Part shown: piece by piece, positions 4,223-59,440 of the stretch | Position numbering within the stretch: position 1 is the stretch's first letter | How the letters are laid out: each line of letters opens with the position of its first letter | DNA from: Bdellovibrionota bacterium | GTDB lineage: Bacteria; Bdellovibrionota; UBA2428 | DNA: 64,000 nucleotides | Direction of reading: 5' to 3' | Assembly (NCBI GenBank): GCA_044347615.1 | Contig: JBIKUK010000003.1 | Location: 139,895 to 203,894 of the forward strand | Program-made: the position numbers and the translations under genes | Notes under the pieces: generated by a model | Told to the model about the DNA's origin: nothing | What the model saw: the letters and a program-made list of their open reading frames with translations, nothing else | Database searches by the model: none

Positions 4223-4224
4223 CT

Positions 4225-42007: not shown

Positions 42008-45000
42008 ATGTACTTTATGGCATATCAACGAGGGTGGAAAAAATGCTTCTTAACTTTGATACTTCTTTTGGGCTTTGGCGCAGCGACATCAAGTTTCGCG
42101 GCCAAAGAAGATTACTTCAGTGACCATCCAGCAATTGAACAAGAGCTAAAGGCAAAACTTGTCGTTTCTTTTGTGAAATTGAAAGAAATCTGCCTGAAGG
42201 CAATGGATCCTCAAGTAGATTATCTAACCGAGGAAGAAGTCTTCAAGGCACAAGAATACCTCACTCGAATCAAACAATACAAATTTGAATTCCTTGCTCA
42301 CCTCGTTAAAGATCACGCCTATTCTTTGCGAAAATATTTTCCCGATCTTTATCAGATTAAAAAAACGCCCGCTAAAAGCAGATTCTTTTTTCGCTACACG
42401 ACTCTTCTGACTTTTTACTACAGCGCTCTTGCAGAATTAGGAATTGCTCAAGACGTTCCTTTTATCGAAGCAGAAGCCGACGAGTTCGTTCACCTACAAA
42501 AGCATTTCAAGACGAAGCACGCTTTTGTTCACGATGATAGCAAGAAAGCTTACGACTCCCTTCTCAACAAATTGCATTACGCTATTCGAATTTCAGAAAA
42601 CAAAACAAATAAAGCTCGATACATAACTGAAATTTCAGATCCTGATCATCCTGATTTCATGCCTATCTCAAAAGCTCAAAACTTTTTAGAAGCAACTGGA
42701 GATAGCAGACTTGCAAAAGTAGATGCTCTCAACCCCGATCACTTCTCTCCTCAACAGATCGAAATTTTTCGCGCTGCTATTCAAGGCAATGCAATCGGAC
42801 AACAAGATGCCGAAGATGCTTTTGCTCGAATGGAAACAAAACGTCTCCTAGGTGCTACCGACGGCAAGCCTCAAAAGGTATGGCTCATGGGCCCCACTGC
42901 TACAGGTAAAGATGCCTATACTCACGCCTTTGCTTCTGCCATCAATATTGGCAAAAGTGCCAGTGAAGCAGATCATGTCTTTGAATTACCCGTTGTCCAC
43001 AATGAAGGTGATTTGAGTACAATCACGGGCTCATCTACTGGATACGTTGGATCAAATGCACAATCGCGCTTCGTTCACTTTCTCGTAAATCACTCGGGTG
43101 GCAAATATCACATCGACTTAGACGATACAGGAAAAGAAATCGTCTTGGATGGTCCTCACCCCGAACACGAGGGAGCTACCTTTAAGCCAAGTCAGGCAGT
43201 TGTTTTTATCAACAAAATTGACCAATGGTCTTCTGAGTTCATTGATAAAATTTTGATTGATCTTGTTTCAAAAGGAAAAATGGTTATCCGAGCGCCTGGA
43301 CAAGATGGTCTTGCTGAAATTCAAGTGCCCGTAAATATCGTCGTAGCTTCTCAACACGGAAGTGAAATCATTTTTCCTGACGACCGTGAAGGAAAAGAAG
43401 TGACTCTCAAACAAGCTCTCTTGAACTACGATACAGCCCGCAAAGACAAGTCTAAGCTACGTAACGCCATCGAAAGAAGAGGCGCCCTAAGGCTTGATCG
43501 ACCAGACGAAAGACCTCGAAGTGTTCCGTCTGATTTCACAAACCTTTTTTCAAACGAAGAGCTTGTTCTCTTTAAGCCTCATGATGAAGAAATTTTAAAA
43601 GAAATCACCCGTAGAAAAATTCAGGCAAAAATTAAAACCTATCAGGGAATTCAAAAATACTTGGGGCAAGCAAACTTTGAAATCCTCCCAGAAACGGTAG
43701 CCTATATTTCAAAGTTTAAACGTAAACTCATCGATGGAGCGAAAGGAATAGATTCGATCATTGATGATTTTATCGAAAAGCCAATCCTTACGGCTCTTCA
43801 AAATGGTGAGCTCAAAGATGAAGGTCCAACGGGAAGAACTTATGTCCTCGGAATTGTAGAGGACAAAGAAAGCCACATTGTTCTTCAAATAAAAACTCGT
43901 GATCCCAAAAACGAGGGAGCCTTCCTCGAAGATCAGACAAAAAACATTTACGTCAGAACAGTCGAAACGCCTCCAGACCTATTCAGTGAAGCTGAAAAAG
44001 TAAAATTTGAAAATTTTGAAAAGAATTTTTCAAAACATATTTTCGGCTTTCAAGAACTAGGAAAGCAATTCTCAAAAGCACTTTATCTAAGCGAAGCTCT
44101 AAGCCGAAGAAGTAGCATTGGAAAAGCAAGACGCTTTATGGAATTGGGTCTTTCTGCAACAGGAAAAACTCAAACTGCAAAAGAAGTGAATCGCTTTTAC
44201 TACGGAGAAGATGCTCAACTTGAAATGATCGACTTCAACAACGTTAACCATAAACAAGACGTTCAAGACTTACTCTACGGTCGAAGAGGCGAAGGCCCCA
44301 GTCCGTTCATGAAAGCTTACGATAAAAATAACGGAAAAGTTTTGATCCTCCTGGACGAAATCGCCAACGTCAGAGACATCAACGCTCTCGTCCCTCTTTA
44401 CCAATTGCTAGACGAAGCAAAGGTAACTGGATTTAACGATAACGTTCCTCGTTTAATGGAAAACGTTACTTTCATTCTCACAGGTAACGCTACGGAAGAA
44501 ATCTATCGAGTGATTATGAGAAGCATCCCTGAAGAAATTCAGCGCCAGGCTCAAATCGATATCTACAAAAGATTCAATAACGACCCTCAATACAAGAGAG
44601 CCGTTTTAGAATCGCACTTTCGCCAAGCATTCCTTAACCGATTTCCACCCGAAAATATCGTTATCTTCCCGCCCTTGAGCCACGAAGCTTTGCGCGAACT
44701 TGTGCACTCAAAGATTGGAATTTTTGAAAAAGGAATCACCGAAAACCTCAAGTCCAGAAAGATCGAACTCCAATTTGAAAGCCCTGAAAATTTTGAAAAA
44801 TTTGTAGAAGCTATCGAATGGGCAGCTTTTGATGTGTGGGTACAAGGTCGCTCCATTGAAGCTTTCGTGAACGAAACTCTTGATGCAGACATTCTTGTTG
44901 CCTTGAAAAGCCTTCATCTTAAAGACGGAGAGCCCGTAATTTTGAAATTTATCGAAACAAGAGAAACCGACACTCACGACTCAAAACGTCGCGATATTAT

Positions 45001-46000
45001 TCTAGCTCTTGAACATGCTGGGGAGTCTCAAACCATTCAAGTTCAAGGAAAGAAAGTTCTTTCGCGAGTCAGTGACACAAAAGTAGCGCGCTTGATTACC
45101 GGCGCTCACGAAGCTGGACACGAGATTGCCAGAAGAGCTCTTTCTCGTGAATTCACTAAATCTAAAAAAGTCAGTATCATTCCTGGAGTTGCAGAAATTG
45201 CAGGGGAATACATTTATTACGCTGGAGTTGCTTCCTGGGAAGAAATCGCTAAAACATGCGGCACTCGAAATGACATGCTCGCTCAAATGGCAGAACTCAT
45301 TGCGGGTGGCGAAGCTGGTCGTATGGTAACAGTCGGAAATGTTTCAGAACATGGCCAAAGTAACGACTTGGAACGTACGAACGCTATTGCTGAAATCATG
45401 ATCCTCAAATGGGGTCTTGAAGGCAGCTGGGGCTTTGAAGGTCCAGGGCGTGGAGAAACGGTTAACCAATACTTAAATCGACTCTCACCTGAGCAACGAC
45501 GTAAACTTGAACTTGCTAAAGCAAATGTAATTCAAGAAGCGACAGATATAGCTCAAGAGGTTTTAAAAGATAACCGAGAAACTCTCTTTGCCTTTGGTCG
45601 CGAAGTCACTCGCTTAGGAGAAGTTGACTCTGCGGCGATTGAGAAATTTTTCTCAGAGCACGAAGTTGCAGATTACTGGAGTAAACCCAAAAAAGGCCGC
45701 GTGGCTCAAGCTTTCAAAAAAGTTTTTGATTGGACTAAAAAACTTCGTGAAGCAAAAGCCCCCAGTACTCGAACTCCTATTCTTGTAAAAGAATTTGTAG
45801 CAGATGTCGAAAAAGCAGAAGTTGCTAAGATCGAGGATATTCTTTCTGAAAGAAAAGCAGCAGAAATTGCTCACATCAAAGTCCCCTCGCATCTTAAGTA
45901 TAAGAGCCAGCAAGAAAGCAACTCTAAGACCTCTTGGGCGCTTGCAGTTGTGCCTCAAACACAAATTTCTGCAAATTGCTTAACCTTGTTGCGAAGATAA
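42008..46000 (+). CDS. 1330-aa signal-peptide protein with two tandem ClpA/B-D2-type (AAA_2) ATPase modules and a C-terminal FtsH-like M41 zinc metalloprotease domain
   Basis: Module 1 resembles Clp D2: GPTATGKD (Walker A with D instead of S/T), TGYVGSNAQSRF (cf. ClpB GAPPGYVGYEEGG), VVFINKIDQW (Walker B DE replaced by NK). Module 2 aligns residue-for-residue with ClpB D2: GLSATGKTQTAKEV...MIDFNNVNHKQDVQDLLYG...VLILLDEIANV...LLDEAKVTG...NVTFILTGN. C-terminus RLITGAHEAGHEIARRAL...KVSIIPGVAEIAGEY...GQSNDLERTNAIAEIMILKWGL matches FtsH M41 (HEAGHA...KVTIIPRG...GASND...A..MV..WG). N-terminal hydrophobic signal CFLTLILLLGFGAATSSFAA. Confidence 0.8.
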   Translation: MYFMAYQRGWKKCFLTLILLLGFGAATSSFAAKEDYFSDHPAIEQELKAKLVVSFVKLKEICLKAMDPQVDYLTEEEVFKAQEYLTRIKQYKFEFLAHLVKDHAYSLRKYFPDLYQIKKTPAKSRFFFRYTTLLTFYYSALAELGIAQDVPFIEAEADEFVHLQKHFKTKHAFVHDDSKKAYDSLLNKLHYAIRISENKTNKARYITEISDPDHPDFMPISKAQNFLEATGDSRLAKVDALNPDHFSPQQIEIFRAAIQGNAIGQQDAEDAFARMETKRLLGATDGKPQKVWLMGPTATGKDAYTHAFASAINIGKSASEADHVFELPVVHNEGDLSTITGSSTGYVGSNAQSRFVHFLVNHSGGKYHIDLDDTGKEIVLDGPHPEHEGATFKPSQAVVFINKIDQWSSEFIDKILIDLVSKGKMVIRAPGQDGLAEIQVPVNIVVASQHGSEIIFPDDREGKEVTLKQALLNYDTARKDKSKLRNAIERRGALRLDRPDERPRSVPSDFTNLFSNEELVLFKPHDEEILKEITRRKIQAKIKTYQGIQKYLGQANFEILPETVAYISKFKRKLIDGAKGIDSIIDDFIEKPILTALQNGELKDEGPTGRTYVLGIVEDKESHIVLQIKTRDPKNEGAFLEDQTKNIYVRTVETPPDLFSEAEKVKFENFEKNFSKHIFGFQELGKQFSKALYLSEALSRRSSIGKARRFMELGLSATGKTQTAKEVNRFYYGEDAQLEMIDFNNVNHKQDVQDLLYGRRGEGPSPFMKAYDKNNGKVLILLDEIANVRDINALVPLYQLLDEAKVTGFNDNVPRLMENVTFILTGNATEEIYRVIMRSIPEEIQRQAQIDIYKRFNNDPQYKRAVLESHFRQAFLNRFPPENIVIFPPLSHEALRELVHSKIGIFEKGITENLKSRKIELQFESPENFEKFVEAIEWAAFDVWVQGRSIEAFVNETLDADILVALKSLHLKDGEPVILKFIETRETDTHDSKRRDIILALEHAGESQTIQVQGKKVLSRVSDTKVARLITGAHEAGHEIARRALSREFTKSKKVSIIPGVAEIAGEYIYYAGVASWEEIAKTCGTRNDMLAQMAELIAGGEAGRMVTVGNVSEHGQSNDLERTNAIAEIMILKWGLEGSWGFEGPGRGETVNQYLNRLSPEQRRKLELAKANVIQEATDIAQEVLKDNRETLFAFGREVTRLGEVDSAAIEKFFSEHEVADYWSKPKKGRVAQAFKKVFDWTKKLREAKAPSTRTPILVKEFVADVEKAEVAKIEDILSERKAAEIAHIKVPSHLKYKSQQESNSKTSWALAVVPQTQISANCLTLLRR

Positions 46001-46079: not shown

Positions 46080-47597
46080 ATGCTGGGACGAGAGCGCTGT
46101 AAGATGAGTCTAAAATTTTTAAAACTTTCAAAATCCGAACTGTATTTTCTTGCAATGATTCTCGCGATGACTCTTTTAGGGCTCATCGTCGAACTCAGCG
46201 ACGATGAAGTCTACTACTGGAGCTGGAGTCTAAGACCCGCTCTTTCCTACTTTGACCATCCCCCACTTCAAGCGTGGACAACCGCTCTCTCAACGAGTCT
46301 TTTTGGCAAGAATAACTTTGCCGTAAGACTTCCTGCTATTCTTTTTCTTATTTTTTCAGGCTGGCTTCTTCTAAAGCTTGCCAAAAAACACAAGATTGAA
46401 GACTCAGCGCTCTGGATTTGCCTTAACTCACCTACTTTCTATATTTTCTCATGGATCATACTTCCCGACATTTGCTTTCTTCCCTTAGCACTTTTAAGCC
46501 TTTATCTAGCTGAAAGTAAAAAATACTTTCGATCAGGAATAAGCAGCGGCTTTGCTTTGCTCGCAAAATGGCACGCCCTTCTGCTTCTACCTGCCGTTTG
46601 CTTTTCTATTCTTTTCAAAGAAAAAGAAAACTTTAGATCAAAAATAAAAAATCTTTTTTCATATCTTATTCCTGCATGTGTTTTACAAATACCTGTTCTT
46701 ATTTGGAACGCACAACACAACTGGGAGCCTTTTTACTACCATTTCGTAAAACGACACGCTCGCCACTCTCACAAAATTTTAGATCTTTTAAAAAATGGAT
46801 TTTCTTTTATAACAGTCTTCTTATTGCTCATGGGCTTTGGCTTTATCTATCTAGCTTTTCAGTATTTCAAAACATCCTTAAAAAAAGGAAAGTTCTCATT
46901 TCAGAAATCAGACTTATTTCTTTTAGCGTATGCAGTACCTTTTATTGGAATATTCGGACTATCGGCGATAAACGGTGAAACGCGCGTCTACTGGACGTGC
47001 TTTGCTGTCTACCCTCTTTCGATTTTTCTGCTAAAACATGCAACTCAAAAACAAAGAGAAACTTTTTCAAAAATTTCTCAAAAAACTTTTATTATCTTCA
47101 CTCCTATCATCTTTGCAATTCTACTTTTTCCAGTTGGTTATGTTATTAAGCCGATCGTTGAAATTTATCGAAAATACGATTTAAGGATGTCACCTCGAGG
47201 TGATTTTCGAGGCTGGAAGGAATGGGGCGAAAAAACCCTTCAAACACTTGAGACTCCTAAAGATCAAACTCTTTTTATAGCAGCAGACTTTCGACTTGCT
47301 TCACAGCTTTTGTGGAACATGCCCCTCTCTCTTGAAAACGTTCACTGCATTGATAACCACAACCAATACAAAACATGGACGGCTCCAGATTCGCGAAAAT
47401 TTTTAAAAGCTATTTTTGTAGGCGACAATAGACATGGACTTGAAAAAGAACGCTTTCAAAGCATTTGCCATCACCCTCTCGCATGGAAAGAAAGCGAAAC
47501 ACTTCTTCTAGGAAAAGCCATAAAACTGATAACTGAAAGCGAATGCCGTGAGCTCAATCACGAAAAGTATGCAGACTTGATGAGCCTTTCTCGGTAA
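46080..47597 (+). CDS. ArnT/PMT-family (GT39/GT83-like) membrane glycosyltransferase
   Basis: DDEVYYWSWSL...YFDHPPL matches the ArnT/PMT_2 N-terminal motif (DEaYYw..w...yfdHPP). Multiple TM segments. Start may be 46104. Confidence 0.7.
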   Translation: MLGRERCKMSLKFLKLSKSELYFLAMILAMTLLGLIVELSDDEVYYWSWSLRPALSYFDHPPLQAWTTALSTSLFGKNNFAVRLPAILFLIFSGWLLLKLAKKHKIEDSALWICLNSPTFYIFSWIILPDICFLPLALLSLYLAESKKYFRSGISSGFALLAKWHALLLLPAVCFSILFKEKENFRSKIKNLFSYLIPACVLQIPVLIWNAQHNWEPFYYHFVKRHARHSHKILDLLKNGFSFITVFLLLMGFGFIYLAFQYFKTSLKKGKFSFQKSDLFLLAYAVPFIGIFGLSAINGETRVYWTCFAVYPLSIFLLKHATQKQRETFSKISQKTFIIFTPIIFAILLFPVGYVIKPIVEIYRKYDLRMSPRGDFRGWKEWGEKTLQTLETPKDQTLFIAADFRLASQLLWNMPLSLENVHCIDNHNQYKTWTAPDSRKFLKAIFVGDNRHGLEKERFQSICHHPLAWKESETLLLGKAIKLITESECRELNHEKYADLMSLSR

Positions 47598-48073
47598 ACA
47601 AGCTCTGCGGCTCCAAAAAAGAGAATTCCATAAAAGGCATCGCCTAAAAGAGCGTTTCTCAAAAAAGGAATTCCGGCCACTAAACAAGCTATATAGCCTT
47701 GCATCGTTTGAGGATAGAAATTTCCCTGAAAGAAAAACGCTGTATTTGTAAAAAAGAAAAAGAATAAAGAAGCCGGAATTAAAAATAAAAGCTTTTGTAA
47801 ATAAGAGAGTTTTTTCATGACGAAAAAACCAACCACAGAGACAAGCATAAAAGCCACGTAAACTGCCCACATGTAGGGATAAAAGCCTAAAATGCAATCA
47901 CTTAAAAAAAGAGCTGCTAAGGGAATACAAAAAGATTCCGTTGCTTTCTTCAAGTAAGAAACACCTAGGAGAGATAAGACTGTAAGAGATGTAAAGTTGT
48001 CCGGATGAGGAACCAGACGACTAAAGGCAGCTAAAAATACTAGAGTTATTAAAATCCAAGGATATTTTTTCAT
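47558..48073 (-). CDS. small polytopic membrane protein (171 aa), last gene of metH operon
   Basis: 5-6 hydrophobic helices. Start overlaps metH stop (ATGA). No family recognised. Convergent 40-bp overlap with arnT-like gene end. Confidence 0.5.
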   Translation of the reverse strand: MKKYPWILITLVFLAAFSRLVPHPDNFTSLTVLSLLGVSYLKKATESFCIPLAALFLSDCILGFYPYMWAVYVAFMLVSVVGFFVMKKLSYLQKLLFLIPASLFFFFFTNTAFFFQGNFYPQTMQGYIACLVAGIPFLRNALLGDAFYGILFFGAAELVYRERLIKSAYFS

Positions 48074-50595
48074 TTTCCTATTCCCATTTCTTTTAGCAAT
48101 ACAATAACTCGCTCAACTTCAGAGACAACCGTTCCGACGTCAGTGGAAAACCCATCAGCTGATATTTCTTTTGCAAAATCAGGAGTCACAACAGCTCCTC
48201 CAATTAAAACCTTAAAAGGAAGCTTACGCTCTTTGACAGCATCAATCACCACTTTCATTTGCATCATCGTTGTGGTCATCAAAGCTGAAAGAGCAACAAC
48301 TTGTGCTTTTTCCTTGATCGCTGTTTCGATAATCAATTCAGACTCAACGTTTCGACCTAAATCGATCACATTAAAACCAAAATTTCTAAGCATCAGGATA
48401 CATATGTTTTTTCCGATATCATGAATATCGCCTTTGACAGTGGCAAAAACAACAGTTCCCTTATCGCTTCCAGCTGAGCTTGCCGCACGAGCCTTGACCA
48501 GTAAGGGCTCAAGTACACCAACCCCCGCTTTCATGGCATCTGCTGCTGCAATAAGATGAGGAATAAACTTCACTCGAGCCCCAAAGAGATTTCCCAAATG
48601 CCTAATTGCGGGAGTCATCACTTCAAGAAACAAATTCATGGCATCCGCTGGACGTTCTTCAATAAATTGCTGAGTACATTTCACGGTTCGATCTTTTTGT
48701 CCTTCAACAATAGAACGAAAAATATCTTTTTCTAAATCGGAAACCTTTTCTAAAAAGTCAGGCTCTTTGTTGGGGTTATCTTTTGCCGATGGAGCTGCCG
48801 AACCCGCAGCCCCCGCCGCTCCTCCATGGCCTGCTCCACCCACAGCGAGATCAATTTTATCAGCAAAGTTTTCAATAAAACCCTGAACCGAATCAGCCTT
48901 AGGCCCCCACATATTCGCGGCACCTGCGAGAGCTTTGCCCATTTGATCTGTAACAGACATGATAGCTGAATCCAAACCATGCTGAACCGCACTTGATAAA
49001 AACGCATTATGAACAAATGTTCTATTCGGCAGACCAAAACTTACATTACTCAACCCCAAAGTTGTCGCTGCTCCAGGAAAATATTCTTTAATGAGCGCAA
49101 TTGTTTTTAAGCTTTGCTTAGAACCGTCTTGCATGGCTGAAACAACCAAACCTAAACAATCAAAAACAATATCTTCTTCTTTGAAATTATGTTTTTCAAA
49201 AAGTATTTTGGTTATTTTTTGAGCATTTTTTAAGCGGTCCTCTGCTCGAACAGGAACATCAACACCCGTGCACATACAAACCACTGCAGCACCGTGTTTT
49301 TTCATAATAGGAATGGCTTCGTCTAGCTTTTCATCTTCTGCGTTGAGACTATTAAGCAGAGGTCTTCCATAATAAACACTGGCTCCCGTATCGAGAGCAA
49401 AGCTATTGGCACTATCGATCATCAAAGGAACTGAATATTTATTTTGCACAGCCACAACAGCTGTTTTCATAAGAGCAGGTTCATCGACAAGAGGGACGCC
49501 CACGTTCAAATCTAACAATTTCCCACCCGCTTTTGTTTGTGCCTCCGCATCGGCAAGCAACAATTCAAGATCACCCTTCTTGAGGGATTCACTTAATTTT
49601 TTTCTTCCAGAGGGATTCATCTTTTCGCCAATCGGAACAAAAGGATGATTTCCCCCAAGCAAGACATAGGAAGAAAGACTCGACACAAGAACACGTGAGG
49701 CTTTTGAAGGATCTTTACGAAGAGAACTAAGCTGTGAAGATTTTTCTTTTACAAGGCGAATAAACTCAGGCGTTGTTCCGCAACATCCTCCGATGATATG
49801 TGCGCCCGCTTCGATAAATCTCTGCACATAAGGCTCAAGATCTTTTGCGCTCATTGGAAATTGAGTGCGACCTTCTTTAATTTTAGGCAATCCCGCATTG
49901 GGCTGAACGCTGATGTACAAAGGACTTACGCGAGACATCTTTTCGACAATTTTCACCATGGGCTCAGGTCCTGTTGAGCAGTTCACTCCTACTGCATCCG
50001 CGTGAAACCCTTCTGCAATGGCTGCAATATTTTCAGGAGTCGCACCTGTATCAGTTATTGCATCCGTATTAAACGTGGCATGTGCAACAAGAGGAATTGA
50101 AGAAGAAGCACTTCTCACGGCCGAGAGAGCCGCGCGAAATTCAATGCTATCAAACATTGTTTCGACAACAATTAAATCAACACCAATTTTAACAAGCGCA
50201 ACGGCTTGCTCGTAAAAGATTTCACAAACTTCATCAAAAGATTTTTGTCCTGTTGGATAGACCGTTTCTCCAGAGGGTCCAATATCACCTGCGACAAAAC
50301 ATCGCCCAGCACCGGCTTTGCGTGCAACTTCAACGGCTTTGGCATTGATCTCATACAAACGTTTATCGGATTGATACTCTGCCAAGCGCCACTTGCTGGC
50401 ACCAAAAGTATTGGTGAGAAGTATATCTGCTCCCGCATCTGCATATTCTTTTTGAGCTTTAAAAATAACTTCCGAATTATCCATCATCCAAACATCAGGG
50501 GCCATCCCTGCTGGTAGACCTCTGTTTTGAAGCAAAGCTCCCATGGAACCATCCAAGACAAGTATTCTTTTTTTGAGTTCGCTTCTAAAATCCAT
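48070..50595 (-). CDS. metH: cobalamin-dependent methionine synthase lacking the C-terminal AdoMet reactivation domain
   Basis: N-terminal homocysteine-binding domain (ILVLDGSMGALLQNRG). Pterin-binding domain. C-terminal B12-binding domain with DxHxxG (GDIHDIGKNI). Ends at 841 aa versus ~1227 for E. coli MetH. Confidence 0.85.
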   Translation of the reverse strand: MDFRSELKKRILVLDGSMGALLQNRGLPAGMAPDVWMMDNSEVIFKAQKEYADAGADILLTNTFGASKWRLAEYQSDKRLYEINAKAVEVARKAGAGRCFVAGDIGPSGETVYPTGQKSFDEVCEIFYEQAVALVKIGVDLIVVETMFDSIEFRAALSAVRSASSSIPLVAHATFNTDAITDTGATPENIAAIAEGFHADAVGVNCSTGPEPMVKIVEKMSRVSPLYISVQPNAGLPKIKEGRTQFPMSAKDLEPYVQRFIEAGAHIIGGCCGTTPEFIRLVKEKSSQLSSLRKDPSKASRVLVSSLSSYVLLGGNHPFVPIGEKMNPSGRKKLSESLKKGDLELLLADAEAQTKAGGKLLDLNVGVPLVDEPALMKTAVVAVQNKYSVPLMIDSANSFALDTGASVYYGRPLLNSLNAEDEKLDEAIPIMKKHGAAVVCMCTGVDVPVRAEDRLKNAQKITKILFEKHNFKEEDIVFDCLGLVVSAMQDGSKQSLKTIALIKEYFPGAATTLGLSNVSFGLPNRTFVHNAFLSSAVQHGLDSAIMSVTDQMGKALAGAANMWGPKADSVQGFIENFADKIDLAVGGAGHGGAAGAAGSAAPSAKDNPNKEPDFLEKVSDLEKDIFRSIVEGQKDRTVKCTQQFIEERPADAMNLFLEVMTPAIRHLGNLFGARVKFIPHLIAAADAMKAGVGVLEPLLVKARAASSAGSDKGTVVFATVKGDIHDIGKNICILMLRNFGFNVIDLGRNVESELIIETAIKEKAQVVALSALMTTTMMQMKVVIDAVKERKLPFKVLIGGAVVTPDFAKEISADGFSTDVGTVVSEVERVIVLLKEMGIGK

Positions 50596-50617
50596 ATGTC
50601 TTACCTCTCAATTTAAC

Positions 50618-52102
50618 TTAAAAATTTAAATTTCTAACAAAAGCATCTTGAAAATCATCTTGTAGCGCAAGCTCTAAAGGCTTTAATTTTTTTAAAAGTT
50701 CAGCACAGTACTTTTCTTGCTCATCAAGACTTGAAATCGCATACAAGAGAGTTCCCTTGAGCGAACTATTTCCAATCGTTTCAAAAGGAATTTCCTCAGG
50801 TAAAAGCCCAATACCTCTCACCGCTTCTTCTTTGAGGTGCTCAGCAAAAGTACCTGCAAGATAAATCTTTTTTGGACGAACTCCGGCTCGATCAATCAAA
50901 AGGTCACAAGCCGTTCGAGTTGCCGATTTAGCCAATTGAAATTCACGAACATCATCTGCAACAAGGTAGATTTCATCATTCAACATCAACTTGCCATCTG
51001 GAAGATAACCGTCGCTCTGAAGTAATTCCCCTTTAACAGCTTCATAGAGTATATCCATCAAACCCGAACCACAAATTCCACGAGGCTTATCTTGACCAAT
51101 TGTTTCCAAATCCCACTGAGAGTTTTTATAAACAGCATGACTAATAGCGCCAGCCTCAGCTCGCATACCTTGGACAATATTTCCACCTTCAAAAGCAGGC
51201 CCGGCAGGAGCACTCGAAAAATAAAACTCCCCTTTCCCGTTTGCGAGGACAATTTCTGTATTTGTTCCAATATCCACAAGCATCCAAGGCTCTTGAGCTT
51301 GAAGCTTTTCAATATAAAAAAGTCCTGCAAAAGTATCTGCACCTACAAAGCCTCCCAAAAGAGGAAGCGATTTAAACTTTATGTTTAGTTTGTCAGAAAA
51401 AGACTCAAAAGCCTCTCTGTAAAGAGGTTGAAAAGGAAAAACCGCAAGACTTGAAATATCCCAATTGTGTAAAAAACTAAGAATCGCGGAATTACCTGAG
51501 CAAAAAAGTCCCTTTTCCTTGGCCTTACCAAACAACTCAGGGCGAAGCTTTTCGATTTCTTTTAAACATGGTCCAAGCGACTCCAGAATCTTTTCATGAA
51601 GTAAAGAGACTCCCCGATCTTGAGCAACTTTTAACCGAGTCATGACATCCGCACCAAAACGAACCTGTTTATTGAGCAAATGAGTTTCTACTAAAACATT
51701 GCCATTCTCATCTGCAAGAGCCACGACAACACCAGTGGACCCAAGATCACAGACAAGCACAGGACTCACGCAAGAAGAATGTTCGCTTTTGACGATCACT
51801 CGAGGCTTTGCATTTAGATTTTCAACATCAGGCACTAAACAACTTAGATTTGTTCTCGGATGAGCTTGGCAAGAAAGCCTCCACCCCGCAGCTAATTCAG
51901 ATTCTGAAAAAGCTTTTCTATCAGCAGCTGTGATCGCTACAAAACCTTCTTTAATTTTGACTCGACACTTTGTACAACTTCCCGCACCTCCGCACGCTGC
52001 ATTCACAGGAATTCCCGCATCTTGTAAAAAATGCAGAAGCTTATGACCAACATTAACTTGAAGTTCAAAATTCTCAGATCGAGATTCAACTTTTATTTTC
52101 AT
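50618..52102 (-). CDS. RACo-like protein: N-terminal plant-type [2Fe-2S] ferredoxin domain + ASKHA-fold ATPase domain (DUF4445; reductive activator of corrinoid proteins family)
   Basis: CGGAGSCTKCRVKI (C-x4-C-x2-C ferredoxin motif). ASKHA phosphate motifs LVCDLGSTGVVVAL and DIGTNTEIVLA. Confidence 0.7.
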   Translation of the reverse strand: MKIKVESRSENFELQVNVGHKLLHFLQDAGIPVNAACGGAGSCTKCRVKIKEGFVAITAADRKAFSESELAAGWRLSCQAHPRTNLSCLVPDVENLNAKPRVIVKSEHSSCVSPVLVCDLGSTGVVVALADENGNVLVETHLLNKQVRFGADVMTRLKVAQDRGVSLLHEKILESLGPCLKEIEKLRPELFGKAKEKGLFCSGNSAILSFLHNWDISSLAVFPFQPLYREAFESFSDKLNIKFKSLPLLGGFVGADTFAGLFYIEKLQAQEPWMLVDIGTNTEIVLANGKGEFYFSSAPAGPAFEGGNIVQGMRAEAGAISHAVYKNSQWDLETIGQDKPRGICGSGLMDILYEAVKGELLQSDGYLPDGKLMLNDEIYLVADDVREFQLAKSATRTACDLLIDRAGVRPKKIYLAGTFAEHLKEEAVRGIGLLPEEIPFETIGNSSLKGTLLYAISSLDEQEKYCAELLKKLKPLELALQDDFQDAFVRNLNF

Positions 52103-52119
52103 TATTTTTTAAATAATTT

Positions 52120-53976
52120 TCATTTCCTAAAAAGCTTTATAAGCTCCAAAGCAACTTCTACTTTACCCAAAGGAGCATTCACACAAAAGCCCTCGCAAGA
52201 ATTTTCTAATTTCTTCATGGTTTTGAGGGCAAGATCTATTCCTCGCTTTATAGCTTCTTCTTTGTTATCTTTTGTTTTTTCCATTTCTTGCAAAATAGAT
52301 TCAGGAACCTTCACACCAGGAACCTCATGTGCAAGAAACTCTGCATTTGCGTAACTGATAAAGGGCCAAATACCAACAAGATGTGGTCGACTATCCGCTG
52401 AGATATTTTCCCGCCAGCGCATATAAGACTCAGGATCAAAGATGGGTTGTGTCACCGCAAAATCAGCTCCTGATTCACATTTGTATTTCCAGCGTTGTAT
52501 TTCGAGCTCAATATTAATTGCTGTTGGATTAGAAGCCACCCCAATACCAAAATTAGTGGGCTTGCCCAAATTTTCGCCCTTAGGACTTATTCCTTTGTTG
52601 AGAGAATTCATCATGTAGGTCAAACCAATTGCATCAACATCATAAACCGAAGTTGCCTCGCGATTATTTCCAAGCTTAGGAGGATCACCTGTTACAACAA
52701 GTACATCATAAACAGAATTCACATAAGCGCCCAAAAGATCCGACTGAAGCGCAATCAAGTTACGATCACGCGTTGTAAAATGTGGCAAAGCTTTTAAGTT
52801 AAACCTTGGATCTCTGTTTACAAGAGAAGCCACATGCATGGAGCTAATACGAGTACTTGCACGAGGACCATCGGGAACGTTTACAAAATCAATTTTATTT
52901 TGATCGATTAATTCCAATTGCTGAAGAAACTTCTCAACATCAGGTCCCTTGGGCGGAAGAACTTCAATCGAAAAGATCTTTCTTCCTTCTCTTAACTTCT
53001 GACCCATGTACGATTCTTTGCGTTCGATTAAAGGTCTTTGAGTAACTTGGATTTTTTGAGAATCTTTTTTTTCAGCACTCTGATCGCGCACAACAACGAC
53101 ACGCTTTGAATTGAGCATTCGAACTGCATTTCGGATGGCACGAATGTGATCAGGACCCGTTCCGCAACATCCCCCCACACCTGCAGCTCCAGCCTCAACA
53201 AAATTCTTCGCATATTTTGCCATATAGTCAGGGCTTGTCATATAAAAATAACGCCCGTTGAGCTGATTAGGAATGCCCGCATTTGGCTGAACGATAATCG
53301 GTTTAGTTATTGACGGAGCAATCTTTTTAAGTGTTTTATATAAATCACTCGGCCCCTGACCACAATTAAGGCCTACAGCCTGTATGTCCTCACGATGAGA
53401 AATTCTATCTATGAAATTTTGAATCAAATTCTCTTGATGACTGATAGGCGCAAAAGAAGCCAGAATCGGAGTTTTTGAATCCACACTTCGAACACCTTCT
53501 ATGGCGTCTTCTAATTCCGAAATATTTGTAAAGGTTTCTAAAATATAAAGATCAAAGTTTCCGTGTTTCAAAGCGGCAGCTGCAATTTCTGCAAAATAAG
53601 ACCGCGCCTCTTGTCGGCTGGTAGGCCCCAGCGGCTCAATTAAGACTCCCGTAGGTCCAATAGAAAAAGCAATTTTTACGTCTGTTCCCTTACGAGCCTT
53701 GTTGGCTATTTCAAGAGCAGCTTTTATGAGTTCCCCTTGCTTATCTTCGATATCAAACTTTTTCAGCTGAGGGCGACTAATCGAAAACGTATTGGTTGTA
53801 ATAACATTTGCACCTGCTTTGATATAAGCCTCATGGACGGCAAGAACATCTCCAGGGGCACTTAGATTAAGTTCCTCGAAAGGTCGATTGATAAAAAAAC
53901 CCTTCCCATAGAGCTCTGTTCCAATTCCGCCATCAAAAACAATTATTCCATTGTCAAACACTCTCTTATGATTCAT
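52120..53976 (-). CDS. bifunctional homocysteine S-methyltransferase / 5,10-methylenetetrahydrofolate reductase (YitJ-like)
   Basis: N-terminal IVFDGGIGTELYGKG...VITTNTF Hcy-methyltransferase domain. C-terminal MTHFR-like domain. 618 aa as in B. subtilis YitJ. Confidence 0.8.
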   Translation of the reverse strand: MNHKRVFDNGIIVFDGGIGTELYGKGFFINRPFEELNLSAPGDVLAVHEAYIKAGANVITTNTFSISRPQLKKFDIEDKQGELIKAALEIANKARKGTDVKIAFSIGPTGVLIEPLGPTSRQEARSYFAEIAAAALKHGNFDLYILETFTNISELEDAIEGVRSVDSKTPILASFAPISHQENLIQNFIDRISHREDIQAVGLNCGQGPSDLYKTLKKIAPSITKPIIVQPNAGIPNQLNGRYFYMTSPDYMAKYAKNFVEAGAAGVGGCCGTGPDHIRAIRNAVRMLNSKRVVVVRDQSAEKKDSQKIQVTQRPLIERKESYMGQKLREGRKIFSIEVLPPKGPDVEKFLQQLELIDQNKIDFVNVPDGPRASTRISSMHVASLVNRDPRFNLKALPHFTTRDRNLIALQSDLLGAYVNSVYDVLVVTGDPPKLGNNREATSVYDVDAIGLTYMMNSLNKGISPKGENLGKPTNFGIGVASNPTAINIELEIQRWKYKCESGADFAVTQPIFDPESYMRWRENISADSRPHLVGIWPFISYANAEFLAHEVPGVKVPESILQEMEKTKDNKEEAIKRGIDLALKTMKKLENSCEGFCVNAPLGKVEVALELIKLFRK

Positions 53977-53995: not shown

Positions 53996-55804
53996 ATGAA
54001 AATTTTTTATTTTTGGGCCATTATTTTGAGCTCATTCTTTTTTCAGTTTTTAAGGTCTCAACCAAAAGAACAAGAAATCGTCGTCTCGGTCGAGAGCCAA
54101 GAAATTGACGAAAGCCCCTCTCCCCAAAATTACCAACTACCTAAGCAATCTCTCGAAATCTCCTCACAAAAAACCCTGGGAGATATTTTAAAAAAAGAAA
54201 ACGGCTTTCAATTTAATTCTAACTTTCAAGGCATTAGCACGAGCACCATTCGAGGCCTTGGAAACGGAAACATTCTTGTTATCTGGAATGGTATACGACT
54301 CAATGACTTACTTGATCCAAGCTCAAGCTTTGATTTTTCGAGACTCAAATTATCAGGTGAAGAAAAAATAGAAATCATCAGAGGACCTGAGGCAAGCATT
54401 TGGGGATCAAGTTCAACAGGAGCCGTTGTCTTCATTCATCAAGATCTTTCAAAAGCAAAAAGTCATCTAGAAGGAAGCTATGCCACATACAACAGCTTTA
54501 ACCTTGAAGGTCTTTTTCAAAAAAACTTTAGAAACACAAAATCCTTAATTTTTGGAAACCTATTTTCAACAGAGGGCATCTCCTCCGCTAGCTCAAAATT
54601 AGGAAATAGCGAAAAAGACGGAAGAAGCTCTCAAAACGGATTCTTCTTTACGAATACTCAACTTTCTAAAAACTGGAACCTTAACTCTTCTTCTTTTATC
54701 AACCACTCCTTCAACGAAGCTGATTTAAGAGGTGGCACTGGAGGTGACGAAATAGGAGCGCGCGATTCAGGACTCAATCTGGCCCTTCACCTGAACGCAC
54801 TCTATGACTCTCAGAAAAACTATCAAAACAAAAGCTCAATTTCTTATCAAAAAGATTTTCGTTATCATAAAAACTCAGTTGAATATGCTCGCTATGAAAG
54901 TGATTTCGTATCTCTTCAAAATGAAAATAAATGGAAAATTGGAGAGCAACACAAACTCACTTCTGCTTTTGAGAGTGACTTTGAAAAAGCAAACAGTTCA
55001 GAAACAACAGGGATCATCAACAAAAAGAAATACTCCTTAGGCCTGAGAAATCTCTACGATGCACATTTTGAGAAATTTGATTTTAAAGCGGGCCTCAGAC
55101 TTGAGAAAGAACTCAATCTTTCTTCCAAATTAAATCTAGCTTATTTCTCAAGCCTAAGCCTGCCCATCCATTTAACAAATTCTATTCTTCATTTATCAGC
55201 TGCCAAAGCCTACAGAAGAGCAAGCCTCTACCAACTTTTTTCAAGCTACGGGAATCCCTCGCTTCAAGCTGAGGATGTTGTTTCCTACGAGGCTGGAATT
55301 CTCCAAGATCTTGAAAAAATTAATTCGACCTTTGAAACAACTTTTTTTGACAATCACTTAAAAGAAAGTATCGACTTTGATTTTGTCACAGAAAAATACT
55401 TTAATGGAGGCGATAAAAAAAACCACGGAATAGAAAGTGCTCTTGAAACCAAGTGGAACTCTAAAGTAAAAACTCGAACAACTTACACATGGACAGATTC
55501 CCAATCTTTAAGGGTTGCCGAACACAAAGCCTCGCTCGGATTAACCTATAACATTTCACCTACATTAAAGATGACTTACGAAGCTCTCTTTAATGGACGC
55601 AAAAAAGACATCGATGCGGTCACTTATGATGTTAAACTCATGAAACCCTATTGGCTCTTGAACTCATACTTTGAATATAAAATAAAAGAAAATCTTCTTG
55701 CTAGATTTCACATAGACAATATTCTTAATACTGAGTACGAGGAAATTGATGGATTTGGAAGCCCAGGAAGGTACACAAAACTTTCACTCAGGTACTCATT
55801 CTAA
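53996..55804 (+). CDS. TonB-dependent outer-membrane receptor, BtuB-like
   Basis: Signal peptide. Candidate TonB box EIVVSVE. Plug domain (ILKKENGFQF...IEIIRGPEASIWGSSSTGAVVFI). C-terminal RYTKLSLRYSF ending in aromatic residue. ~600 aa like BtuB. Confidence 0.75.
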   Translation: MKIFYFWAIILSSFFFQFLRSQPKEQEIVVSVESQEIDESPSPQNYQLPKQSLEISSQKTLGDILKKENGFQFNSNFQGISTSTIRGLGNGNILVIWNGIRLNDLLDPSSSFDFSRLKLSGEEKIEIIRGPEASIWGSSSTGAVVFIHQDLSKAKSHLEGSYATYNSFNLEGLFQKNFRNTKSLIFGNLFSTEGISSASSKLGNSEKDGRSSQNGFFFTNTQLSKNWNLNSSSFINHSFNEADLRGGTGGDEIGARDSGLNLALHLNALYDSQKNYQNKSSISYQKDFRYHKNSVEYARYESDFVSLQNENKWKIGEQHKLTSAFESDFEKANSSETTGIINKKKYSLGLRNLYDAHFEKFDFKAGLRLEKELNLSSKLNLAYFSSLSLPIHLTNSILHLSAAKAYRRASLYQLFSSYGNPSLQAEDVVSYEAGILQDLEKINSTFETTFFDNHLKESIDFDFVTEKYFNGGDKKNHGIESALETKWNSKVKTRTTYTWTDSQSLRVAEHKASLGLTYNISPTLKMTYEALFNGRKKDIDAVTYDVKLMKPYWLLNSYFEYKIKENLLARFHIDNILNTEYEEIDGFGSPGRYTKLSLRYSF

Positions 55805-56327
55805 ATTTACGAATTTCTTTGCAATCTCTCTTCTTCTACATATCATTGGACTAGGATTTTTCTTCAAAAAAAACACCAACCCTTTTCTTTCAGATAAAAA
55901 AATTGTCATCCATTTAAGCGGAGGAGAAAAGACTCAAATTTTAAAGCAAAAAAATAATTACGAACAAGCAAAATTAAGCACCCACAAAAAAACCCAAAAC
56001 TCCTTTGCGACTCTCTCTCATCCAATATCAGAAAGATTTTCAAACACAAAAGACGACACTCTAACCTCTGCTGCAAACTTTGAAGCAGTATACCCTCGCC
56101 TTTCAAGAATATTCAAAGAGCAAGGAGAGGTCGTTTTCAAAATTAAAAAATCTGATCACATAGAAAAACTAAGTTTTGAAATGATCAAATCATCTAGTCA
56201 CAAAAGACTTGATCACGCTGCTGAAGAAGCTCTCGAAACAAACAAAAAGAAAATTTTAACTTTAATCCAGGATCAAAACATAGAGCATATTCGCTTCGAA
56301 TTTAAACTTACCCGAAAAGAACCATAA
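55746..56327 (+). CDS. TonB-family protein (C-terminal TonB domain)
   Basis: N-terminal TM helix FAISLLLHIIGLGFFF. C-terminal AVYPRLSRIFKEQGEVVFKIKK...SSSHKRLDHAAEEAL resembles the TonB C-terminal domain. ORF-table start overlaps the receptor gene by 58 nt; true start uncertain. Confidence 0.5.
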   Translation: MMDLEAQEGTQNFHSGTHSKFTNFFAISLLLHIIGLGFFFKKNTNPFLSDKKIVIHLSGGEKTQILKQKNNYEQAKLSTHKKTQNSFATLSHPISERFSNTKDDTLTSAANFEAVYPRLSRIFKEQGEVVFKIKKSDHIEKLSFEMIKSSSHKRLDHAAEEALETNKKKILTLIQDQNIEHIRFEFKLTRKEP

Positions 56328-56342: not shown

Positions 56343-57389
56343 TTATTTCTTAACGAATAGGTAATGAGACACTCCCCATTCCTGTCCTTTTTTATATCCA
56401 AAAAGCTCTGCACACGACAAAAAGAATATCCGCCATCGTTGAAACCAACGAGCCGACTCTTTTTCACCATAGGTTCTTTTTAAAATTTCCATAACCTGTG
56501 GTTTTTTTTGATCTAAATTCTTTAGCCAGTCCTCAGATGTTTTAGAATAATGAGTTCCATTCCAAAGCCATTGCTTTGAAAGTTTCATGTCTTTTTGAAA
56601 ATAACTTAAAAGGCTGTGGCTCGGCATTTGACCGCCCGTAAAAAAATACTTACCCATCCAATTATCTTCCCCCTCGGTTTCAAAAAGATAGGGAGAGCTT
56701 TTATGAGTAAAAATGTGAACAAAAAGTTTTCCTTCAGGCTTTAACCAAGTTGAAATTCGATGGAGCAATAACTCGTAATTTCTCAAATGCTCAAACATTT
56801 CAACACTGGCCACACGATCAAAAAGACCAAATTCTTCTGCTAAAGTCTCTACGTTTTCAATGTTTCGAGTGAGGACTTGAACATTCCTCAGACCTTCACT
56901 TTCGCAGCGCTCCTGAATATAAAGCCTTTGAGGCTGAGAATTAGACAAAGCGACAATTTTTGAGTTTGGATATTTTCGAGCCATCGCCAAAGTTAACGAT
57001 CCCCAGCCGCAGCCTAATTCAAGAATGCTCATTCCATCTTTAATTTCAATTCGGTGAACGGTCTCCTGAAGAGCAATATCTTCAGCTTTATCCAAAGTTG
57101 TATCTGGATCAGAGTAGTAAGCGGAACTGTATTTTTTATTTTTACCTAAAACTAAATGAAAAAACTCAGAGGGAAGTTCATAATGCTGTTCATTTGCTTT
57201 GTGGGCCTCGGGAGCAAGGGGAGATTTTTTTAACTCCTCAACATATTCAAGAACCTTCTCATTTAAAAGCATCTCATCTTTGAGGGTGATACTTTTTAAA
57301 CGATCACGACATAACTTACGAATTCCCATGCGAATTGCAAAATCAGGAACCAAACCACGCTCCATCGCCTCAATCACAAGATTATACAT
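56343..57389 (-). CDS. Cfa-like class I SAM-dependent methyltransferase
   Basis: ILELGCGWGSLTLAMARKY SAM motif. Cfa-family layout. Confidence 0.8.
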   Translation of the reverse strand: MYNLVIEAMERGLVPDFAIRMGIRKLCRDRLKSITLKDEMLLNEKVLEYVEELKKSPLAPEAHKANEQHYELPSEFFHLVLGKNKKYSSAYYSDPDTTLDKAEDIALQETVHRIEIKDGMSILELGCGWGSLTLAMARKYPNSKIVALSNSQPQRLYIQERCESEGLRNVQVLTRNIENVETLAEEFGLFDRVASVEMFEHLRNYELLLHRISTWLKPEGKLFVHIFTHKSSPYLFETEGEDNWMGKYFFTGGQMPSHSLLSYFQKDMKLSKQWLWNGTHYSKTSEDWLKNLDQKKPQVMEILKRTYGEKESARWFQRWRIFFLSCAELFGYKKGQEWGVSHYLFVKK

Positions 57390-57390
57390 T

Positions 57391-58662
57391 TTAAATTTCC
57401 TCCTTGAATAAAGGTTTTGTTAAAGAAATCTGTGCGCAACCAATACTCTTTTCTCTAAAACCACCCTCGCAGTAGGCAAAATAGAATTGCCACATGCGAT
57501 AAAGCTCATCGGAGTACCCCAAAGAAAGCACCTCTGCCTTCCTTTCTCTCAACGAATCACTCCACGACCTCAACGTTTTTGCATAGTGAATTCCAATGTC
57601 TTCCAAATTGTCTAATTTAAAATCAGTTTTTTTCTTAATCGCATCCGACATGGCATGTACCGATGGAATGCCTGAACCAGGGAAAATATGGCGTTGAATA
57701 AAATCAACATTATTTTTCGCTTGATCATAGTACTGATCTCGAATCGTAATAGCTTGCAACAACATTTGCCCATGAGGCTTTAATCGTCGGCTACACACTT
57801 CAAAATATGTTTCTAAGTGATCAAGTCCTACGGCTTCAATCATTTCTATCGAAACAACTTTGTCAAAAGTACCTTCAAGCAACCGGTAATCTTTCAAAAG
57901 TAAGGTAATCCGATCTTGAAGATGAGCTTCGCGAATTCTTTTTTCCGCAAGCTCATATTGCTTTTGAGAAATTGTGGTGGTCGTAATGCGACACCCGTAA
58001 TTTTGGGCGGCATGAAGAGCAAAGCCGCCCCATCCTGTTCCAATTTCAAGAATATGATCAGAAGGCTTGAGATTTAGCTTGCGGCAAATGCGATCGTTCT
58101 TTTCTGTTGAAGCCTCAAACATGGTGGAATCAGCTTTCAAAAAGACACCACTGCTGTACATAAGAGTTGAATCAAGGAATAAAGAAAAAAAATCATTCCC
58201 TAAATCGTAATGGGCGCGAATATTATCTTTCGATCCAGAGAGAGAGTTCTTTTTGAGTCGGTGACTTAATTTAGCAAAAGGAGAGAACAAAGCACCTGCT
58301 CCTGCATCAAGAGCATTAAGAATATCCCTATTCAAAACAAAAATTCGAACCAAAGAAACAAGATTGTCACAATCCCAATCCGCTTCCATATAGCTTTCAG
58401 CCGCTCCAATAGAGCCCCCTAAAGCCATACGACTATAAGCTCTCAATCGATGAATTTTAATTTGAGCCTGATAACAAGCTGGAGCGTTTCTATCCCCTAA
58501 CGCAAAAGACCCTTCCTCAGGATCTATAATCTCAACAAATGAATCTTTAATTCCAGAAAGTTTTTTTATTAATAGATCTCGACACAATTTATCTGCAAAA
58601 CCTGCTTGCAATAAATTTCTTACAGAAAGTCGAGGCCGAGTCACTTCACGAGCAGCTGTCAT
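57391..58662 (-). CDS. cfa: cyclopropane-fatty-acyl-phospholipid synthase
   Basis: ILEIGTGWGGFALHAAQNYGCRITTTTIS is near-identical to the E. coli Cfa SAM motif region. 423 aa. Confidence 0.85.
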   Translation of the reverse strand: MTAAREVTRPRLSVRNLLQAGFADKLCRDLLIKKLSGIKDSFVEIIDPEEGSFALGDRNAPACYQAQIKIHRLRAYSRMALGGSIGAAESYMEADWDCDNLVSLVRIFVLNRDILNALDAGAGALFSPFAKLSHRLKKNSLSGSKDNIRAHYDLGNDFFSLFLDSTLMYSSGVFLKADSTMFEASTEKNDRICRKLNLKPSDHILEIGTGWGGFALHAAQNYGCRITTTTISQKQYELAEKRIREAHLQDRITLLLKDYRLLEGTFDKVVSIEMIEAVGLDHLETYFEVCSRRLKPHGQMLLQAITIRDQYYDQAKNNVDFIQRHIFPGSGIPSVHAMSDAIKKKTDFKLDNLEDIGIHYAKTLRSWSDSLRERKAEVLSLGYSDELYRMWQFYFAYCEGGFREKSIGCAQISLTKPLFKEEI

Positions 58663-59440
58663 ACTTGAACTCCTTGTTTTTAGGATGCGAAAAAAAAGGG
58701 ATCCCCTTTAATTTTAAAATTAGTGCTTGAAAATAAATAGCCACAAAAGCTTTAAGAGTTAACAAGGGATATGAGATAAGTGTCATACACACATTCCAAG
58801 GATTTAGCTTTCGACTCTTTAAAAGCATAGTCGCATCAAAGATTTTTTGGGACCCCTCGAAACCAAAATTTTCCATATGCACGCTTAAAAGCTGCCCTTT
58901 GTCATAACCCCTAAAGTCTAAAGAAGGAGAACTAAAAGACCAACTGTATTTTTGCTCCATCGGCAAAAAGGGTGAGACATGAAAATCTTTTTCAAATTTG
59001 AAATTTTGTATTTTTTCTTGAACGTTACATTTTAAAACATAAGTATGCCGCTCATTCCAAGGAGTGTTTGTAATTTCAGCAACAATAGCCTGCAAGACCT
59101 CATCTTTGGAATAACAATAATAAAAACTCACAGGATTAAAACAAAACCCTAAATATCGAATTTGCGTTAAAAGACGAATAGCACCTTCTGGTCTAAAGCC
59201 TAAAATCTCAGCAACTTTTGAGCGAACACTCTCATCAAGTGAAAGCCCAGGATTTCCCAAATAATCTGATCTTCGAAAACTTAAAAAACCAGCTTTTTGT
59301 GAAAACAAAAAAGGTATTCGAAATAAATGATCTATTTCCGCTAAGTCCAAATAAAACAAAGCGACATTGTAATTAAAAAAATGTTTTTTAGGAGAAAATC
59401 GACGGTGTCTCAACGTCCCTGTGTAAAGAGCACTTTTCAA
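58646..59440 (-). CDS. DUF1365 family protein
   Basis: ALYTGTLRHRRF N-terminus typical of DUF1365. Conserved position between amine-oxidase-like gene and cfa. Confidence 0.75.
   Translation of the reverse strand: MKSALYTGTLRHRRFSPKKHFFNYNVALFYLDLAEIDHLFRIPFLFSQKAGFLSFRRSDYLGNPGLSLDESVRSKVAEILGFRPEGAIRLLTQIRYLGFCFNPVSFYYCYSKDEVLQAIVAEITNTPWNERHTYVLKCNVQEKIQNFKFEKDFHVSPFLPMEQKYSWSFSSPSLDFRGYDKGQLLSVHMENFGFEGSQKIFDATMLLKSRKLNPWNVCMTLISYPLLTLKAFVAIYFQALILKLKGIPFFSHPKNKEFKYDSCS

Follow-up and report, generated by a model that had tools for sequence, protein, structure and literature searches.

Cobalamin-dependent methionine synthase (MetH) is not always built with its own reactivation domain. In Thermotoga maritima a four-domain MetH (TM0268) is encoded next to TM0269, which the account of Huang et al. 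2007 cited in PMC10293825 presents as an experimentally established separate reactivation protein, and Rodionov et al. 2004 noted, in several delta-proteobacteria, a MetH that ends without the C-terminal reactivation domain (PMC545781). An alternative partner has emerged from genetics: Price et al. 2018 reported cofitness with MetH, in Desulfovibrio alaskensis and D. vulgaris Miyazaki, for proteins combining a ferredoxin with DUF4445 (RamA-like), noted that the MetH of D. vulgaris Miyazaki has no PF02965, and found that Phaeobacter needs a RamA-like protein to make methionine (PMC5764234). GapMind accordingly lists PF14574 as an alternative to PF02965 for B12 reactivation (10.1101/741918), and in Ruegeria a 2025 study saw induction of a RamA homolog along with that of a corrinoid-dependent methionine/glycine-betaine system (PMC12478193). 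RACE-type ATPases, the family to which these proteins belong, couple ATP to the reduction of Co(II) to Co(I) in protein-bound corrinoids (reviewed in PMC7317905). Here we describe an operon for methionine synthesis from an uncultured bacterium of the Bacteriovoracaceae/Bdellovibrionota, found in a 64-kb window (the whole stretch of DNA that was analysed, 64,000 nucleotides of contig JBIKUK010000003.1), in which a four-domain MetH is preceded by a RACo-like ATPase. We put at about three in four the probability that this RACo-like protein is an ATP-driven reactivator of the MetH, replacing the module that depends on S-adenosylmethionine (AdoMet) and flavodoxin.

As judged from published descriptions, the locus resembles the systems of Price et al. 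(DvMF_1398, Dde_2711 and PGA1_c15200), in which a MetH or split MetH without PF02965 is paired with a ferredoxin-DUF4445 protein for which ATP-dependent reduction of cob(II)alamin has been proposed, the same logic as that considered here; the host, like Phaeobacter and Ruegeria, is probably an aerobe. There are also differences: DvMF_1398 has two DUF4445 domains and Phaeobacter has a three-part MetH that also needs DUF1638, whereas in the window the activase gene lies inside the metH operon, between yitJ and metH, an arrangement that is phylum-wide. The principle of MetH repair by a RACo-like protein is already published and the locus is a clear new example of it, not a new principle, so that the current picture, which already includes an ATP-driven route, is unchanged. 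Two comparative points are modestly new, namely the in-place swap of one reactivation gene for another and a fusion seen in Lachnospiraceae. We found neither described in the searchable open-access literature, nor did we find anything there on the Bdellovibrionota operon, on the alternation of RACo and TM0269, or on DUF6580.

The operon, its MetH and the RACo-like activase homolog

The operon occupies positions 47558-53976 of the minus strand and comprises four co-oriented, closely spaced open reading frames (ORFs), given here in the order of transcription:

52120..53976, minus strand: YitJ-type fusion of homocysteine methyltransferase and methylenetetrahydrofolate reductase (MTHFR), first gene of the operon (618 aa; Pfam, NCBIfam)
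50618..52102, minus strand: RACE-type (RACo/RamA-like, DUF4445) reductive activase homolog (494 aa; Pfam, PDB match)
48070..50595, minus strand: four-domain cobalamin-dependent MetH without reactivation domain (841 aa; Pfam, BLASTP)
47558..48073, minus strand: DUF6580 membrane protein (171 aa; PF20221)

This is the order given in a preliminary description of the same DNA (a metF/homocysteine-methyltransferase fusion, then the activase, then metH, then a small membrane protein), although the last gene falls just outside the interval 48070-53976 that it covered. The gap between the yitJ-type and RACo-like genes is 17 nt and that between the RACo-like gene and metH is 22 nt, with GAGAGG preceding the metH ATG, while metH and the DUF6580 gene share a 4-nt ATGA overlap; such spacing points to a single transcript with translational coupling.

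Pfam scans of the MetH (EC 2.1.1.13) detected the homocysteine-binding (PF02574), pterin-binding (PF00809), B12-cap (PF02607) and B12-binding (PF02310) domains but not PF02965. In BLASTP the protein aligns to residues 8-838 of Escherichia coli MetH and ends ~37 residues further on, at the end of the B12 domain (PF02965 of the E. coli enzyme comprises residues 938-1208), and the following gene overlaps its stop codon. These results uphold the preliminary description, according to which the 841-residue enzyme stops after a B12-binding domain with an intact DxHxxG and has no AdoMet/flavodoxin reactivation module. The cobalamin motifs (D723-I-H725-D-I-G728, S770-A-L772 and G799-G800) and the zinc cysteines C206, C271 and C272 are invariant in the clade (alignment A4). 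In line with the shortened architecture, the score against TIGR02082 is 470 (cutoff 1010.85), and the 120 best homologs of the protein (48-93% identity) are four-domain enzymes without exception. The window thus resembles TM0268/TM0269 in combining a four-domain MetH with a candidate reactivation partner in the adjacent gene, but the partner is a non-homologous, ATP-dependent activase.

Searches for the missing domain in the surrounding DNA were negative. Pfam scans of 51 of the 59 window ORFs of at least 120 aa (each of the eight omitted ORFs overlaps a larger gene) found neither PF02965 nor a flavodoxin, and MetH is the sole corrinoid protein among them. In tblastn of E. coli MetH residues 897-1227 against the whole window the best E was 0.12, and three TM0269-type profiles, run against the six-frame ORFs of the window and of 13 related loci of ~6-21 kb, returned nothing credible. 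A 75-aa antisense segment at 4067-4291 (13.9 bits, E 0.004 to a TM0269-type profile) was judged to be a cysteine-rich chance match. Taken together, the Pfam, tblastn and profile searches give no sign of an activation domain hidden in the window; the combination that the preliminary description had named as speaking against its proposal, a separate activation-domain gene together with a flavodoxin, was not found within these 64 kb.

The gene directly upstream of metH had been assigned to a [2Fe-2S] ferredoxin plus ASKHA protein of the RACo/DUF4445 type, and the profile searches agree: Fer2 (an N-terminal ferredoxin domain of the plant type; 45.5 bits, cutoff 21), Raco_middle (76.6) and RACo_C_ter (165.5) all exceed their Pfam cutoffs, in keeping with the RACE-type ATPase/RACo family (PF00111, PF17651 and PF14574). 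Among PDB structures the protein comes closest to RACo of Carboxydothermus hydrogenoformans (3ZYY; residues 5-490, E 2.5e-42). The cysteines of the [2Fe-2S] cluster (C37, C43, C46 and C78) and the ASKHA motifs (D119xGxT123, D277xGTN281xE and G342xCG345) are invariant over 12 homologs (alignment A1), and the DLGSTG, DIGTNTE and GICGSG of the window protein align with DIGTTT, DIGTNGE and GICGSG of RACo. Overall, the protein has the Fer2, middle and ASKHA domains of RACo (3ZYY, 4C1N) and retains both the phosphate and the adenosine motifs as well as all four cysteines of the cluster. It is, however, shorter (494 instead of 631 aa), since its residue 94 aligns to RACo residue 187 and the ~80-residue linker domain (RACo ~108-186) is therefore missing.

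Gene order and alternation with a stand-alone activation gene

The genomic setting of the activase was analysed in contigs encoding its homologs and in genomes scanned at one per species. In each of the 13 Bdellovibrionota loci (L001, L002, L006, L007 and L009-L017) a yitJ-type gene, a RACo-like gene and a four-domain metH follow one another in that order, and the RACo-like proteins of these loci are 38-90% identical to that of the window. The closest genome locus (L009), from an uncultured Bacteriovoracaceae metagenome-assembled genome, encodes a RACo-like protein that is 90% identical and MetH domains that are 98-100% identical; further relatives bear the names Bdellovibrionota, Bdellovibrionia or Bdellovibrionales, and the exact window proteins, which occur on public contigs, carry generic annotation only. 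Outside the phylum the picture is different: none of 71 genome loci (RACo-like protein at most 39% identical) has a complete metH next to the activase gene. Judged by its genomic neighbourhood, the Bdellovibrionota branch of RACo-like proteins is specifically tied to MetH.

One locus of the wider sample has a related layout. In Aquisphaera insulae (L034:4708-9467) an 867-aa RACo-like ORF, extended at its N-terminus by 376 aa, has upstream of it a corrinoid-protein gene and then a gene with a homocysteine-methyltransferase domain; together they may form a split-MetH-like system that has an activase of its own.

A second comparison started from MetH and covered 80 metagenome loci annotated by six-frame phmmer/hmmsearch, of which 64 were informative (12 + 43 + 9). 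Here ACT denotes a stand-alone activation-domain gene of ~220 codons, of the TM0269/PF02965 type. By identity of the MetH to that of the window, the gene directly upstream of metH was distributed as follows:

MetH at least 52% identical: 12 informative loci; RACo-like 10, ACT 0
MetH 43-50% identical: 43 informative loci; RACo-like 0, ACT 33
MetH 36-39% identical: 9 informative loci; RACo-like 0, ACT 3

ACT is thus immediately upstream in 36 of the 52 more distant four-domain metH loci (L094, L095 and 34 of L106-L173), and not one locus in this sample carries both genes. The identity of ACT was checked in two cases: the ORF at L095:7169-7852 matches PF02965 with 30.4 bits (cutoff 25) and PDB 1J6R, which is T. 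maritima TM0269, with an E of 4e-14, and the ORF at L094:7318-8004 matches 1J6R with an E of 2e-10. That the same upstream slot is held by either ACT or the RACo-like gene, and never by both, is the signature of non-orthologous displacement. Functional coupling of the RACo-like protein to MetH, which was tested by conserved adjacency and by mutual exclusion with ACT, is supported on both counts as far as gene order can tell, and of the evidence that could be had here for reactivation by the RACo-like protein, the alternation is the strongest. The survey of truncated metH genes for neighbouring RACo homologs that the preliminary description had proposed therefore turned out in its favour, both in the phylum and in 10 of the 12 closest MetH relatives.

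The two types of activation protein also meet within single polypeptides. Among the RACo-like ORFs of Lachnospiraceae and related Clostridia, 26 (~720-800 aa; for example L003:8001-10175, L022:1475-3715 and L024:3959-6181) carry a ~210-aa N-terminal extension related to TM0269: a profile of the extension matches 1J6R with an E of 1.7e-4 (residues 33-181 to 48-201), and 9 of the 26 proteins match PF02965 weakly. The domain ends with a conserved HDCRxCxNxxC, and many of these genes adjoin stand-alone corrinoid proteins. In Rosetta-stone style, the fusion hints at a link between RACE-type ATPases and the MetH-type activation fold.

The first gene of the operon offers another conceivable partner for the activase homolog. 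Its product contains PF02574 (202 bits, residues 12-285) and PF02219 (129.5 bits, residues 325-593), with the zinc cysteines lying within LNCGQGP and GGCCGTGP, and both domains are spanned in one chain by the NCBIfam equivalog NF006396, 'bifunctional homocysteine S-methyltransferase/methylenetetrahydrofolate reductase' (593.5 bits, cutoff 453, residues 6-617), in agreement with the YitJ-like bifunctional identity proposed earlier. Some MTHFRs use ferredoxin-type partners, and the RACo-like gene lies directly downstream of yitJ, its start even overlapping the end of yitJ in L002 and L006; the [2Fe-2S]/ASKHA protein could on these grounds be an electron-transfer partner of the YitJ-type MTHFR and not of MetH. 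We regard this as highly improbable: a RACo middle domain together with an ASKHA domain is typical of corrinoid activases, L162 has yitJ followed directly by metH with no RACo-like gene between them, and the alternation with ACT suggests that the partner is MetH.

YitJ of Bacillus subtilis is a two-domain fusion of the same kind. It is partnered with MetE and is under S-box control, whereas the window gene heads a metH operon and no riboswitch was found. The window gave no Rfam match at gathering thresholds, and the three sub-threshold matches obtained at E<=1 between 47000 and 56500 (two snoRNA families and tmRNA) were taken as chance; ten related loci likewise gave no Rfam riboswitch match. 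Control of the operon by an S-box or cobalamin riboswitch, which we had considered, is ruled out by these scans.

Proposed reactivation of MetH and its alternatives

In the scheme that we favour, the MTHFR of the YitJ-type protein would make 5-methyl-tetrahydrofolate (methyl-THF), and MetH would move the methyl group to homocysteine through a cob(I)alamin/methylcob(III)alamin cycle, with occasional oxidation leaving its cofactor as cob(II)alamin, which is inactive. At this point the RACo-like protein would dock on the B12 domain of the inactivated enzyme, and binding and hydrolysis of ATP by the ASKHA domain would drive an electron uphill from the [2Fe-2S] cluster to Co(II), giving Co(I), which methyl-THF would remethylate in the normal cycle. 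Since Co(I) would be regenerated by the activase and remethylated by methyl-THF, neither AdoMet nor flavodoxin nor a PF02965 domain would be needed. The corrinoid itself would be imported by a BtuB-like receptor, perhaps with DUF6580. We infer the action of the RACo-like protein on this MetH, its independence from AdoMet, a source of electrons for the cluster, the way in which the His-on cofactor is dealt with and the role of DUF6580. The idea of an ATP-driven route replacing reductive methylation, already put forward in the preliminary description, draws support from three independent lines, namely the conserved gene order, the either/or occupation of the upstream slot and the published genetics.

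Several observations weigh against it. The RACo-like family as a whole is not specific to MetH and, by its gene neighbourhoods, serves various corrinoid proteins: a stand-alone corrinoid protein is encoded nearby in 32 of the 71 loci outside the Bdellovibrionota, and unrelated genes also occur as neighbours. Even among close relatives, L097 and L153 (metH of the Bdellovibrionota type, 71-73% identical) have no adjacent RACo-like gene and unrelated neighbours (a divergent alpha/beta hydrolase stands where it would be expected in L097:3391-7502; the other exception is L153:1083-3136), so that in these the activase must be either elsewhere in the genome or missing. As for the protein, the serine with which RACo coordinates Co(II) in its complex with CoFeSP (Ser398; PMC4934906) is matched in the alignment by Pro299 of the window protein, an invariant Ser297 lying two residues upstream (alignment A1). 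The scores against NCBIfam AcsV (NF040756; 212, cutoff 800) and RamA (TIGR04270; 95.8, cutoff 500) are far below the cutoffs, which by sequence makes the protein a distinct RACE-type ATPase subfamily, ortholog of neither. Its presumed substrate is moreover a His-on MetH (DxHxxG), unlike the base-off/His-off CoFeSP on which RACo acts, and the docking chemistry may be different. In the open-access literature we found no paper that shows biochemically, for any RACE-type ATPase, an action on MetH. Finally, the absence of PF02965 and flavodoxin covers the 64-kb window and the related loci, and such genes may lie elsewhere in the genome.

Some of these points can be read in favour of a classical route, in which a PF02965/TM0269-type protein encoded elsewhere would reactivate MetH with AdoMet and flavodoxin or ferredoxin, the RACo-like protein would serve another corrinoid methyltransferase or have a different function, and its place in the operon would be a coincidence. 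The frequency of ACT in the more distant part of this MetH clade, the stand-alone corrinoid proteins beside RACo-like genes in other phyla and the two exceptions just described all fit such a route. We nevertheless consider it unlikely: ACT occurs in relatives but never in a locus with the RACo-like gene, the placement of the latter between yitJ and metH with gaps of 17 and 22 nt is kept down to 38% identity, and neither the window nor the 13 related loci encode another corrinoid protein, PF02965 or a flavodoxin.

If the RACo-like protein is indeed the reactivator of MetH, the Bdellovibrionota would have swapped, in place, a TM0269-type protein for a dedicated RACE-type ATPase, arriving at an ATP-driven repair of a His-on enzyme that is independent of AdoMet and flavodoxin in an aerobe, with the Lachnospiraceae fusions as evolutionary or mechanistic intermediates. 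We lean slightly towards this extended proposal; were it true, an old docking domain would recruit a new electron pump in the fusions. The upkeep of MetH without a reactivation domain matters for the genome-based prediction of methionine prototrophy and B12 dependence, where truncated MetH is often mis-scored as incomplete, and the alternation of RACo with TM0269 would offer a simple genomic rule for the repair route of a four-domain MetH. The Bdellovibrionota operon also provides a compact, linked pair of activase and MetH, which is convenient for a biochemical proof of MetH repair by RACE-type ATPases.

Flanking genes and other features of the window

Three further features adjoin the four genes of the operon:

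53996..55804, plus strand: BtuB-like TonB-dependent receptor, candidate outer-membrane B12 receptor (602 aa; Plug domain, TIGR01779)
55746..56327, plus strand: possible TonB-like protein, weak (TIGR01352 tonB_Cterm below cutoff)
47546..47563, minus strand: terminator-like hairpin over the stop codon of the DUF6580 gene, weak (pattern scan)

The receptor is divergent from yitJ, with only 19 nt between the two start codons, so that the promoters must fall within coding sequence. The hairpin is a possible end of the operon; in the pattern scan for promoters and terminators from which it comes, counts were not above the shuffled expectation. The receptor has a Plug domain, and its best NCBIfam model by a wide margin is TIGR01779 (TonB-B12), matched over the full length with an E of 1.4e-45 and a score of 156 bits that compares with an equivalog cutoff of 599.7. 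The ORF that follows matches TIGR01352 with an E of 0.005 (17.2 bits, cutoff 27.1) and has no Pfam match.

The DUF6580 protein (PF20221, 140.8 bits) has 6-7 transmembrane helices and was modelled by AlphaFold2 with a pLDDT of 92.5. It has no sequence match in the PDB; the top Foldseek matches there were ThiT (3RLB; probability 0.95, TM-score 0.53) and PanT (probability 0.35, TM-score 0.31), with E values of 0.36-0.53, and BtuM was not among the Foldseek matches. Going by the model, the protein may be a small transporter of the vitamin type, with a fold like that of ECF S-components. A corrinoid as its substrate is only a guess, since the DUF6580 genes of Bdellovibrio bacteriovorus, Occallatibacter, a Bacteroidota metagenome-assembled genome and one further locus have no B12 genes in their context.

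Together, the receptor and DUF6580 suggest that B12 uptake is linked to the operon. The receptor takes the same divergent position in L001, L009, L010 and L096, and DUF6580 follows metH in L001, L009, L101 and L104; the more distant relatives have neither. In the closest relatives the operon is flanked by genes for a receptor resembling BtuB and a membrane protein resembling an S-component, and the window has no B12 biosynthesis genes. On these grounds the RACo-like protein might be pictured mainly as a one-time activation chaperone, which reduces cob(III)alamin or cob(II)alamin newly imported through the receptor and DUF6580 for the first loading or methylation of apo-MetH, and not as an enzyme of cyclic repair. 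We give this possibility little credence. The RACo-like gene and metH stay together without receptor and DUF6580 in L002, L006 and L011-L017, which identifies MetH as the core link; the known ATPases of the RACE type have protein-bound Co(II) as their substrate (PMC7317905); and the displaced partner, ACT, is a reactivation protein and not an uptake protein.

The remainder of the window encodes a pyruvate/2-oxoacid dehydrogenase complex, citrate synthase and acyl-CoA dehydrogenase, which would fit an aerobic heterotroph as the host. Next to the B12 locus, the minus strand at 56343-60693 carries two cyclopropane-fatty-acid-synthase-like methyltransferases, a DUF1365 protein and a flavin amine oxidase, a cluster that appears unrelated to the met operon. 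A 392-aa ORF at 35713-36891 (plus strand) has a domain of QueH, the B12-independent epoxyqueuosine reductase, at residues 201-373, preceded by an N-terminal half of ~200 aa that matches neither Pfam nor NCBIfam; QueA is encoded at 5854-7005. The 1330-aa protein at 42008-46000 (plus strand) combines AAA_2 (Cdc48-type) and Peptidase_M41 (FtsH-type) domains and is otherwise mostly unannotated. Three consecutive ORFs of 552, 582 and 341 aa at 23320-27887 (minus strand) have no Pfam match and lie in the part of the window with the lowest GC content (0.36-0.37, compared with ~0.41 overall). Adjoining chorismate synthase, a 614-aa ORF at 29807-31651 (minus strand) contains a shikimate kinase (residues 12-144) and the N-terminal domain of shikimate dehydrogenase (residues 389-470), and may represent a multi-domain aro fusion.

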